DNA from: Myxococcales bacterium
GTDB taxonomy: Bacteria > Myxococcota_A > Polyangia > Polyangiales > Houyiibacteriaceae
Assembly (NCBI GenBank): GCA_024640845.1
Contig: JAHEEE010000007.1
Coordinates: 141 to 64,140 of the forward strand
Direction of reading: 5' to 3'
Length of the DNA: 64,000 nucleotides
The notes under the pieces were generated by a model. It had not been told where the DNA came from. It did not search any database and worked only from the letters and a program-made list of their open reading frames with translations. This document shows positions 301 to 3,136 of this stretch, one piece after another. How positions within the stretch are numbered: position 1 is the first letter of the stretch; each line of letters opens with the position of its first letter. The position numbers and the translations under genes were made by a program.

Positions 301-983
301 AGCTGCGTATTGCCACCTACAACATCCATCGCTCTGTCGGGGGTGACGGACGAGCGGATCCCTCGCGGATCGCCTGCGTCCTCACGGAGCTGGACGCCGA
401 TTTGGTGGCTCTTCAGGAGGTCAGCTTCGGGGCGCAGCTGCCTGGCGAGCTTCTCGAGCGTCTCGCGGACTCGATGGGGGCTGAGGTGATCGCGGGCACA
501 ACCCTTCACGATGCGCGCGGGCACTATGGGAACGCCGTAGTGAGCCGCCTTCCCGTGGCAACGGCCCGCAGATTCGACCTCAGCGTGCGGGGACGAGAAC
601 CGCGAGGCGCGATTGAGATGACGACGAGCGCTAACGGCGTTAGCCTGCAAGTGGTCGCGACCCACCTTGGGCTGCGACCGGCGGAGCGACGTCACCAAAT
701 CGCTCAGCTTCTTCCGCTTTTCGATGCCTCTACGGCGGACCTGAAGATCCTCCTCGGCGACCTCAACGAGTGGTTCCTATGGGGGCGTCCGATCCGCTGG
801 TTGCACCGTGTTTTCGATCCGGGGCCCGCGCCTGCGACGTTTCCCGCGCACCGACCCTGGCTCGCACTCGACCGAGTGTGGGTCACACCGTCCCGCGTCC
901 TCGAACGTCTATACGTGCACGACAGCGCAAGCGCGCGCGCTGCGTCGGACCACCTGCCACTCGTCGGAGAGCTTCAAATTTGA
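297..983 (+). CDS. Endonuclease/exonuclease/phosphatase family protein
   Basis: ATYNIH, ALQEV, GDLNEW and SDHLP motifs; GTG start at 297 overlaps the upstream stop (GTGA). Confidence 0.9.
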   Translation: MKLRIATYNIHRSVGGDGRADPSRIACVLTELDADLVALQEVSFGAQLPGELLERLADSMGAEVIAGTTLHDARGHYGNAVVSRLPVATARRFDLSVRGREPRGAIEMTTSANGVSLQVVATHLGLRPAERRHQIAQLLPLFDASTADLKILLGDLNEWFLWGRPIRWLHRVFDPGPAPATFPAHRPWLALDRVWVTPSRVLERLYVHDSASARAASDHLPLVGELQI

Positions 984-1061
984 AGATGCGCGCCGCAGGT
1001 TCACGCCGGGCGAGACTCGAGGGCGGATTCAAGCCTAGGGCGAACGCTTTCAACTCCCGCA

Positions 1062-1370
1062 CTAGTCTTCGCAGACCCTCAGTATCACTTGGGTCGCGCT
1101 CGCTTCGACCAGCCTTGCCTGGCAACCGAGGCGAACCTTGTCTGGCGTGTCCCCGAAGATCTCGAGGACTTCGAGCTCGAACTCATCTGCTGTAGAAAGG
1201 GCGTCGGCGCCTTGAACCACCTCGACCCTGCACGTGCCGCAGGTGGCCGCCCGGCACGAGTACGGCACCGCCGCCTCAGGATTTGCATCCGTGATGTCCA
1301 TGATCGCCTCGCCCGGCTCCGCGTCGACCTCGAAACCAGCGGGCTCGAAACGTACTCGAATGCTGCTCAT
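1062..1370 (-). CDS. 2Fe-2S ferredoxin
   Basis: SCRAATCGTC...RLGCQ ligands; start trimmed to MSSIRVRF at 1370. Confidence 0.9.
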   Translation of the reverse strand: MSSIRVRFEPAGFEVDAEPGEAIMDITDANPEAAVPYSCRAATCGTCRVEVVQGADALSTADEFELEVLEIFGDTPDKVRLGCQARLVEASATQVILRVCED

Positions 1371-1501
1371 GCCCCGATCAGAATGGGGAGCTTGGTGAAG
1401 CCCCGCGTGAAGGCCGAACGGCGGTGCACCGCGCCGATCGCTTCCTGCACGTCTGGATTGAAGGGATTGCAAACGGAATCGTAGTTGATTTCGGATGTCA
1501 T
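1367..1501 (-). pseudogene. 44-codon ORF, probable internally deleted cytochrome P450 remnant
   Basis: MTSEINYDSVCNPFNPDVQEAIGAVHRRSAFTRGFTKLPILIGA; ATGA overlaps with both neighbours; N-half resembles P450 N-termini (NPFxPxVQ) and C-half resembles P450 C-termini (SxFxRGFxxLP). Confidence 0.5.
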
Positions 1502-2160
1502 GCAGCCGTGTCCTCGGTGAGCTTCTCGATGGCCGAGACGAACACGTCTGGATTCTGCGCGCCCGGGATCAAGTAGCGACCATCGAGAATGAAAGCGGGC
1601 ACCGCTTGGATGCCCTTGCTCAACCAAAGGCGCTGGTGCTCTCGGACATCGGCTGCGTACCGGCCGTCTTGGAGCACCGCGGCGGCTTCCGCTTCGTCGA
1701 GCCCTACCCGGCCCGCAACCTCGGCCAGCACCTGTTCATCGCCGACGTTCTCCTGCTTCGAGAAATAGCTTTCGAACAAAGCAAGCTCGAGCTCGGATTG
1801 TTTGCCCATTTGCTCGGCCCACTTCAGCAACTGGTGCGCGAGGAACGTATTGTAGATGCGCTGGCCCTCGTAAAAATTGAACGAGAAACCGAGTGAATCG
1901 CCTATTGCGGTCAAGCGGCCCCGTGCAGCATCGCTTTGCTCGCGGTTGGTCCCGTACTTCTGCCCCATGTGCTCGCGAAGCTCCTGCCCTTCGGGCGGCA
2001 TCATCGGGTTGAGCTCGAATGGATGCCAATGGATCTCGGCTTCGACCGCGCCATCGAGCCGCAATAGCGCCTCCTGCAACTGCTTGTAGCCGATGACGCA
2101 CCAGGGGCAGACCACGTCGGAGACGATGTCGATGCGGATCTTCGCGCGCTGGGTGTTCAT
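1498..2160 (-). CDS. DsbA family oxidoreductase (FrnE-like)
   Basis: SDVVCPWC, PFELNP, VPAF motifs. Confidence 0.92.
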   Translation of the reverse strand: MNTQRAKIRIDIVSDVVCPWCVIGYKQLQEALLRLDGAVEAEIHWHPFELNPMMPPEGQELREHMGQKYGTNREQSDAARGRLTAIGDSLGFSFNFYEGQRIYNTFLAHQLLKWAEQMGKQSELELALFESYFSKQENVGDEQVLAEVAGRVGLDEAEAAAVLQDGRYAADVREHQRLWLSKGIQAVPAFILDGRYLIPGAQNPDVFVSAIEKLTEDTAA

Positions 2161-2317
2161 AACTCTCAACCTAGGAACGACACATGGTCACGCAAGACGC
2201 GCCCGTCAATCCAGCTCACTCACTTCCGAAATAAGCCACGCCGATTCGATCCTCGGCGAAAGTCGGTACCCAGTCATTGCTGCTCCCCTGCGAGCAGTGC
2301 TGACGGCCTGCAAGTCG

Positions 2318-3136
2318 CTAGGAGCGTCGGCCGGGCAAGCCGAACTCGCGCCGAAGGATCGCGTCACGCAACGAACCTGGAAGGCGCGCTGCGGTCTGAA
2401 GCGCGGCGCTCCGGCCGCCCCCTCGGATCACCCGTGGGGGTTCCTTCGCGAGAAGCTGGCCAGCCACGAAAGACGCGTAGTCGGTGGCCGTCATCGGCGA
2501 CGTTTTCGCGGTGCTCACTCGCCGCTCGACCGCATCGAAGTAGGGAGCATAGCTCGAGTCCCGGTACTCCTCGAGACCGGCAGCGGCGCGGTCTTCGATC
2601 TCGGTGGTGACCTGCGCAGGCTGCACCTCGGTGACCGCGATACCAAACGGGGCGAGCTCGAGGCGAAGCACTTCGCTCAACATGTGAACACCCGCTTTGG
2701 ACGCGCAGTACGCAGCGGTAAACGGCGCGGGCAGCAACCCGACGACGCTGCTGACATTCACGATGTGCCCTCCCCTCTCCACCATGTGAGGAAACACGGC
2801 TTGAATCATCGCGATCACGCCCGTGAGGTTCGTGTCGATGAGGTTCCTCACCCGAGCCATGGGCGCCTCGACCAGCGGCGCGGTCATACTAACGCCGGCA
2901 TTGTTGACGAGCACGTCGATGTGGCCGCCACATTCGATGACGGTTTCAACCGCTACCTCGATGCTTTCCGGGTCGGTCACATCGAGCGCCAGCGGCAGGA
3001 GGTTCTCCCCGGCAATCGCCTGCAAGGTCTCCGACCTTCGCGCGGTTGCAAACACCCGTTGCCCTCGCTCCGCAAGCTCGATGGCGAGCGCTCGCCCGAT
3101 GCCGGTAGAACAACCGGTGATCAGAAATGTCTTCAT
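2318..3136 (-). CDS. SDR family oxidoreductase
   Basis: TGCSTGIG, NNAG, YCASK. Confidence 0.92.
   Translation of the reverse strand: MKTFLITGCSTGIGRALAIELAERGQRVFATARRSETLQAIAGENLLPLALDVTDPESIEVAVETVIECGGHIDVLVNNAGVSMTAPLVEAPMARVRNLIDTNLTGVIAMIQAVFPHMVERGGHIVNVSSVVGLLPAPFTAAYCASKAGVHMLSEVLRLELAPFGIAVTEVQPAQVTTEIEDRAAAGLEEYRDSSYAPYFDAVERRVSTAKTSPMTATDYASFVAGQLLAKEPPRVIRGGGRSAALQTAARLPGSLRDAILRREFGLPGRRS

Follow-up and report, generated by a model that had tools for sequence, protein, structure and literature searches.

A 44-codon open reading frame (ORF) lying between a DsbA-like gene and a 2Fe-2S ferredoxin gene in an uncultured myxobacterial genome is almost certainly the scar of a ~404-codon, CYP130-like class I cytochrome P450 gene that formerly stood at this position, in an operon whose genes overlapped closely. 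As a P450 pseudogene, it represents ordinary gene decay. What the scar does at present is a separate matter. From sequence comparison with relatives, we lean slightly towards its being a translational bridge that may deliver ribosomes to the ferredoxin start codon; the other serious account, in which the open frame is a neutral leftover, shares the same near-certain P450 origin.

Results

A 44-codon ORF overlaps its neighbors at both ends

The window (the whole stretch of DNA analyzed, 64,000 nucleotides; G000:C39:141-64140) belongs to a 4.1-Mb metagenome-assembled genome (MAG), G000, that comprises 145 contigs and is 95.6% complete. The features of the locus are listed in Table 1. A 4-nt ATGA joins the scar ORF to each of its neighbors: at 1498-1501 it contains the DsbA stop (TGA, 1500-1498) and the start codon of the scar, and at 1367-1370 the stop codon of the scar and the ferredoxin start (ATG, 1370-1368). 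Both ends thus have the stop/start overlap of termination-reinitiation pairs, and these coordinates confirm the layout described in an initial annotation of this DNA, which had placed a 44-codon ORF between dsbA/frnE and the ferredoxin gene with an ATGA at either end. No promoter or terminator signals were found between the genes of this locus.

Table 1. Features of the window locus, pieces and deletions that make up the scar, and loci of the genus that lack the P450. Coordinates are window positions unless a contig is named; L121 is the metagenome contig described in the text.
Feature	Coordinates	Strand	Description
DsbA/FrnE-like thioredoxin-fold gene	2160..1498	minus	220 aa; PF01323, E 1.9e-37
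44-codon scar ORF	1501..1367 (ATG 1501-1499, TGA 1369-1367)	minus	peptide MTSEINYDSVCNPFNPDVQEAIGAVHRRSAFTRGFTKLPILIGA, then stop
2Fe-2S ferredoxin gene	1370..1062	minus	102 aa; PF00111, E 3.2e-12
Piece 1	1448..1501	minus	scar codons 1-18 = P450 codons 1-18 (MTSEINYDSVCNPFNPDV)
Piece 2	1427..1447	minus	scar codons 19-25 (QEAIGAV); 28/29 nt identical to L121 gene 544-572, E 1.3e-10
Piece 3	1367..1426	minus	scar codons 26-44 plus stop = P450 residues 386-404 (HRRSAFTRGFTKLPILIGA, then stop)
First deletion			495 nt = 165 codons (19-183); direct repeat GACGTG
Second deletion			585 nt = 195 codons (192-386); direct repeat GCGC(G/C)GTGC
Window-type locus			upstream of ferredoxin: scar formed via two in-frame deletions
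G011 locus (L089)			DsbA-scar-ferredoxin layout as in the window; 38-aa scar MTSEIEYDPIYDPFNPDVISDPYPFYAGLHEDPIQIKA
L087	JABDJF010000149.1, 699-2449		second upstream P450 ends ...DVRFRIKT, then stop, at the ATGA of the ferredoxin, with a relic of ...RIKA, then stop, as its last four codons
L085	DATIUW010000260.1, 5900-6010		no P450; an FtsX-like permease gene ends within GAGTGAGG, its stop 9 nt 5' of the ferredoxin ATG
L088 (G010)			about the last 55 P450 codons left

Orthologs of both neighbors occur in the genus. Those of DsbA (62-89% identity) are present in 9 congeneric genomes, and no synteny around DsbA is conserved in the other congeners. Ferredoxin orthologs (66-85% identity) were found in >30 congeneric genomes by searching 24 same-genus genomes together with a species-representative genome collection. 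The four Cys of the ferredoxin are invariant across the ortholog alignment, and pairwise dN/dS is ~0.1 whether or not a lineage has the P450, including in all five that have lost it (see below).

The scar consists of three collinear pieces of a P450 gene

Searched against Pfam, the 44-aa ORF matches no family at E-values up to 10, because it is too short and too fragmented; the same Pfam P450 model (PF00067) finds seven real P450s in G000. A profile of 13 orthologous full-length P450s from relatives, on the other hand, aligns with scar residues 3-18 at profile positions 9-24 and with residues 24-43 at positions 390-409. The whole-sequence E-value of this match was 1e-5 among 8350 decoys (5000 peptide shuffles and 3348 44-aa tiles from the six frames of the window), the best of which reached only 0.62. 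At the DNA level, blastn-short of the scar against the intact P450 gene of the metagenome contig L121 returned three collinear matches (scar nt 35-54 to gene 35-54, 49-77 to 544-572, and 85-121 to 1165-1201) with E-values of 0.008, 1.3e-10, and 3.2e-8, respectively. The collinear similarity is thus above chance at both the protein and the DNA level, and the scar comprises P450 codons 1-18, 182-191, and 384-404.

Piece 1 was delimited by the first of these DNA matches and by codon-by-codon comparison with the 13 orthologs and L121. Its last two codons, GACGTG, constitute the microhomology at junction 1. Five of its residues (N6, S9, V10, C11, and N12) are altered, in or beside the IEYDPIYDPF block of the orthologs, which in the scar reads INYDSVCNPF, a pattern of decay expected from relaxed selection.

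Piece 2, taken with the DV that precedes it, corresponds to internal residues 182-190 of the L121 P450 (LDVKEAIGAVQ), and the first two bases of scar codon 26 still match Q191. The scar reads GAC GTG CAG GAA GCG ATC GGC GCG GTG CA, where the L121 gene (544-572) reads GAC GTG AAG GAA GCG ATC GGC GCG GTG CA. The segment LDV(K/Q)(E/Q)AIGAVQGL (P450 residues 180-193) is conserved in most of the orthologs listed, and a search for piece 2 allowing up to 5 mismatches gave a sole match, at the homologous place, in each of 7 other loci and in L121. The GCGGTGC at its end is the microhomology at junction 2. Piece 3, which was placed by profile positions 390-409, the third blastn-short match, and codon alignment, includes the stretch immediately 5' of the ferredoxin start.

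The initial annotation had taken NPFNPDVQE and the second half of the peptide for the two ends of a P450 that had lost roughly 350 internal codons in one deletion. When compared with P450s, as it had proposed, both halves do align to P450 termini by profile and DNA matches. A model with the N- and C-terminus only is nevertheless rejected, since codons 19-25 fit neither terminus and match the internal segment; DVQEAIGAV is instead a third, interior piece (residues 182-191). The loss amounts to ~360 codons, and it occurred in two deletions rather than one. Both are multiples of three, and the frame has been kept as the annotation stated.

The scar gives no family profile match over ~400 aa and has no heme loop FxxGxxxCxG: its sole Cys is C11, in SVCNPF, and the heme-binding loop FAQGPHFCIGAH of the orthologs falls within the second deletion. 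Without this loop the scar cannot be a P450. Elsewhere in G000 there is no intact ortholog of the lost gene, the best other matches being paralogs, two other class I P450s that are 32-35% identical to it. Given the completeness of the genome, a small residual doubt attaches to true loss from G000.

Relatives retain an intact P450 at the same position

The gene directly upstream of the orthologous ferredoxin gene in 24 congeneric loci encodes a P450 of 404-421 aa, and in nearly all of them the P450 stop and the ferredoxin start share an ATGA or GTGA. These relatives are uncultured Myxococcota/Polyangiales MAGs. Their P450s are 76-100% identical to the L042 reference, with an N-terminus of the form ...(I/V)xYDPIYDPFNPE(L/V)IADPYPFYxRLRDEHP and a C-terminus of the form ...FEIDWDRAERRQSAFTRGFTKIPIxIKA, followed by the stop.

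The upstream side of the locus is preserved in L121 (Ga0209536_100001973), which was found by scanning metagenome contigs with the DsbA protein. In L121:3001-4960, a DsbA ortholog (83% identical) is followed, through a GTGA overlap, by a full 404-aa P450 starting MSSEIKYDPIYDPFNPDVILDPYPFYARLRDEHP; this order of DsbA and P450 is the arrangement expected in the ancestor of the window locus. The ferredoxin gene of L121 starts with TTG in place of ATG and breaks off after codon 7 (TTGAGCGGCATTCGAGTACGG, followed by unrelated sequence). This reciprocal loss, in which the P450 was kept and the ferredoxin lost, suggests that in this group the partnership of P450 and ferredoxin is not obligate.

The scar thus occupies, relative to its orthologous neighbors, the position of the intact gene, as judged from the ferredoxin in the 24 loci and from DsbA in L121. 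Relatives with the 44-aa ORF intact and no P450 at this place had been named in the initial annotation as evidence that would speak against a P450 remnant; the P450 is present there in the 24 loci and in L121.

Two further P450s that appeared truncated, in L068 (CP070650.1, 5663-5780) and L080 (CP070713.1, 4980-5180), were set aside: these are 100-N scaffold gaps, not deletions. Both loci come from 'chromosome' MAGs, and in L080, the only one of the two that was read, the gap is flanked by homopolymer junk.

The P450 was lost at least five times in the genus

Five of 29 informative species have no P450 but an intact ferredoxin (the last five rows of Table 1). Since the junctions all differ, these losses are independent, and the P450 has been lost at least five times in the genus. 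The ferredoxin is intact in all five, and in four of them an upstream frame with a clear start ends close to it. It may be that translational coupling limits the routes by which operons decay.

The G011 locus has the layout of the window and a different history. A deletion of 1097 nt has fused P450 codon 26 to the gene's 3' end at ACGCGGGGCTTCACGAAGAT, a stretch that is read out of frame, and an extra 1-nt deletion (CCCGATC to CCC-ATC) returns the frame to the original ATGA. Two simpler descriptions were rejected: (i) that the G011 scar is a single N-terminal run to ...FYAGLHEDPI, since the 3'-end register matches at 15.1/18 nt vs 9.6/18 nt for the N-terminal one, and (ii) that the window genome and G011 share one ancestral deletion, since each retains P450 codons absent in the other. 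The N-terminal part of the G011 scar is still conserved as protein despite a dS of ~1.1 between species (dS between species of the genus is ~1.2), which indicates that the G011 deletion is recent and separate from those in the window. No other ortholog of the lost P450 was found in G011 or G010.

Between the two genomes, DNA homology is confined to window 1056-2209, which begins shortly 5' of DsbA and extends to the ferredoxin stop, and to the 3' end of a short-chain dehydrogenase gene that neighbors DsbA in the window. This 3' end (window 2316-2436 = L089:1-121) is separated from DsbA by a further 5 kb in G011, where a 719-aa ORF fills part of the dehydrogenase-DsbA interval, and there has been an insertion or a deletion between the two species. 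A second, class-II-like P450 (72-88% identical) lies 0-3 kb upstream in 13 other loci; this is the gene that is fused in L087.

Initiation signals before the ferredoxin gene

We searched the 30 nt 5' of the ferredoxin start for complementarity to the anti-Shine-Dalgarno (anti-SD) sequence. Across the 24 full-length loci it amounts to 0 to -3 kcal/mol, with the exception of L084 (-5.3). The window has a GGGG run (-5.0) that lies 1-2 nt from the ferredoxin ATG, a spacing too close for an SD site to serve. The only strong SD-like site before any ferredoxin ortholog seen is GAGTGAGG in L085 (-7.3 kcal/mol), and L085 is the one locus without an upstream frame that overlaps the ferredoxin start. The RNA of the scar has no unusual fold (z = 0.74).

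Variation of the scar among sister contigs

Two contigs from other samples carry the same scar. In L115, which stems from another metagenome, DsbA is 96% and the ferredoxin 93% identical to those of the window, and the 44-aa ORF has 2 amino acid changes; L111 has identical junctions and 6 amino acid changes in the ORF. Between the window and L115, 5/132 nt of the scar differ, compared with 10/149 four-fold sites in the flanking genes (p = 0.30), and the scar changes are 2 nonsynonymous and 3 synonymous. Considered in the scar's own frame, 3/24 four-fold sites have changed vs 2/108 other sites. The comparison with L111 gives 6 nonsynonymous and 2 synonymous codon changes. The C-terminal 16 residues of the scar are identical in the window, L115, and L111. 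With these substitutions, constraint and neutrality cannot be separated.

The L111 scaffold (ENA ERZ23491561 scaffold_59417, 1-1437) is chimeric, with unrelated low-GC DNA joined 23 nt before the DsbA stop. Eleven of its 12 mismatches to the window fall in scar nt 17-84, and there is 1 in 198 nt of ferredoxin; this cluster could result from recombination, a strain chimera, or a local hot spot. Given the chimeric scaffold and this odd clustering, we give L111 little weight as a sign of rapid scar evolution. Just 3' of the ferredoxin stop, the window and L115 differ in length by 63 nt (window 983-1062 vs L115:1231-1241).

What the scar may do

There are at least two accounts of the scar that deserve consideration. 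In the one that we favor by a little, translation of the ferredoxin would formerly have relied on ribosomes finishing the P450, and two deletions between short direct repeats reduced that gene to the scar. Ribosomes finishing DsbA would now re-initiate on the scar at the ATGA, terminate after its 44 codons, and re-initiate on the ferredoxin, which itself has no SD site; ferredoxin translation would then depend on ribosomes finishing the scar, supplied by DsbA, while the peptide itself is probably idle. Only deletions that keep such a bridge would survive where the ferredoxin is still needed, presumably by the two class I P450s left in G000 (C53:146258-147457 and C117:48662-49804). These two P450s are candidate clients of the ferredoxin, and no ferredoxin match was found within ~1.5 kb on either side of them. 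The initial annotation had asserted that coupling to the ferredoxin is preserved. As far as the frame and both overlaps are concerned, this stands; functional coupling is something that we infer.

The bridge is consistent with the frame being kept in the window type, G011, and L087, and with the SD site of L085. Retention of the frame in three or four of the five losses, at a chance of 1/3 per event, is only suggestive. Initiation at the ferredoxin start could also be SD independent, which would run contrary to the bridge, as does the remnant frame of L088 (G010), which has no clear start and whose translation is doubtful.

The second account, whose probability we place not far below that of an even split, keeps the P450 origin and holds that the open frame is accidental and has no role, the ferredoxin being initiated directly at its own start. 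The deletions would merely have spared the last P450 codons because those hold the ferredoxin initiation region, and the frame would not yet have acquired a stop. A 44-codon open frame is cheap, since stop codons are rare in any frame of GC-rich DNA, and other frames upstream of the ferredoxin are open too, over 90-200 codons. The substitution patterns are indistinguishable from neutral, the conserved residues of piece 1 have decayed, the RNA has no special structure, and the L088 remnant frame, served by no clear start, fits this account as well. Four observations count against a neutral leftover: (i) in the overlapped loci there is no usable SD-like motif 5' of the ferredoxin, whereas the non-overlapped L085 has one; (ii) the frame in G011 was rescued by a compensating 1-nt deletion; (iii) both deletions in the window are in frame; and (iv) the fusion in L087 is in frame as well.

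If the bridge reading is extended to the whole genus, the ferredoxin would have no initiation signal of its own, and every surviving P450 loss would have left a translated frame ending at the ferredoxin start or immediately 5' of it. The solutions would then comprise an in-frame scar, a compensated frameshift, an in-frame fusion to an upstream gene, or a new SD site. We regard selection of this kind across the genus, and this set of solutions, as a real possibility that stops short of being probable. If true, it would constitute a natural, repeated demonstration of translational coupling constraining gene deletion from operons.

It is very improbable that the 44-aa peptide is instead a functional small protein, for instance a partner of the ferredoxin or of DsbA, that was carved from the P450 and whose sequence is under selection. 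Such a protein would account for the higher share of changed four-fold sites in the scar's own frame relative to L115 and for the identical C-terminal 16 residues, but the conserved C-terminal part coincides with the ferredoxin initiation region. L111 differs at 6/44 scar residues, yet at none of the 66 ferredoxin residues that it carries. G011 retains a different, non-homologous 38-aa fusion whose middle is read in another frame, and L085, L087, and L088 do without such a peptide. The peptide matches no family and falls into just two clusters among 5.8 billion proteins.

Finally, the collapse of a full-length P450 during metagenome assembly or binning, conceivable for a MAG in 145 contigs, has a negligible probability: the same 44-codon ORF and its flanks, from DsbA to the ferredoxin, occur in three independent per-run assemblies (SRR12825431, SRR12825427, and SRR12825424) at 99.8-99.9% nucleotide identity, L115 and L111 share the junctions and each have substitutions of their own, the microhomologies of just 6-9 nt are too short to make an assembler collapse, and a collapse would not yield the decayed conserved P450 residues seen in the scar.

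Discussion

The locus provides a clean worked example of how a bacterial gene becomes a mini-ORF through two in-frame deletions flanked by microhomology, with the ancestral-type layout surviving in a relative. Mini-ORFs such as this scar are better annotated as relics than as hypothetical small proteins.

Among solved structures, the best match of the full-length orthologs is CYP130 (Mycobacterium tuberculosis P450 130; PDB 2UUQ, 2WH8), with E 6e-94 over residues 24-408. Like class I P450s of the CYP130 kind, the scar retains an N-terminal stretch of the (I/V)xYDPIYDPF type and a C-terminal SAFTRGFTK(I/L)PI strand. Unlike CYP130, it has only 44 residues and lacks the heme-binding Cys loop, the ExxR motif, and the I-helix; it is a relic and not a member of the family. 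The relatives conform to the known pairing of class I P450s with ferredoxins, in that the P450 directly precedes its presumed redox partner and the stop and start overlap. Unlike such pairs, the window genome, G011, G010, L085, and L087 have kept the ferredoxin without the P450, and L121 shows the reverse.

In bacterial genetics, non-polar in-frame deletions take out nearly all of a gene and leave a short ORF bounded by its native start and stop codons, which preserves expression of the genes that follow in the operon. The scar likewise leaves a short in-frame ORF with the original start and stop. Unlike an engineered deletion, it is natural and arose in wild populations, in two steps between short direct repeats. 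A literature search of limited coverage found no paper on natural gene remnants kept for coupling.

Overlapping gene pairs of the ATGA type showed strict termination-reinitiation coupling in 13 of 14 cases tested (Huber et al. 2019, PMC6728339). Although the middle member of the present arrangement is a 44-codon leftover without a product of its own, the scar resembles those pairs in having a 4-nt overlap at both ends and in preceding a downstream start that has no usable SD-like motif.
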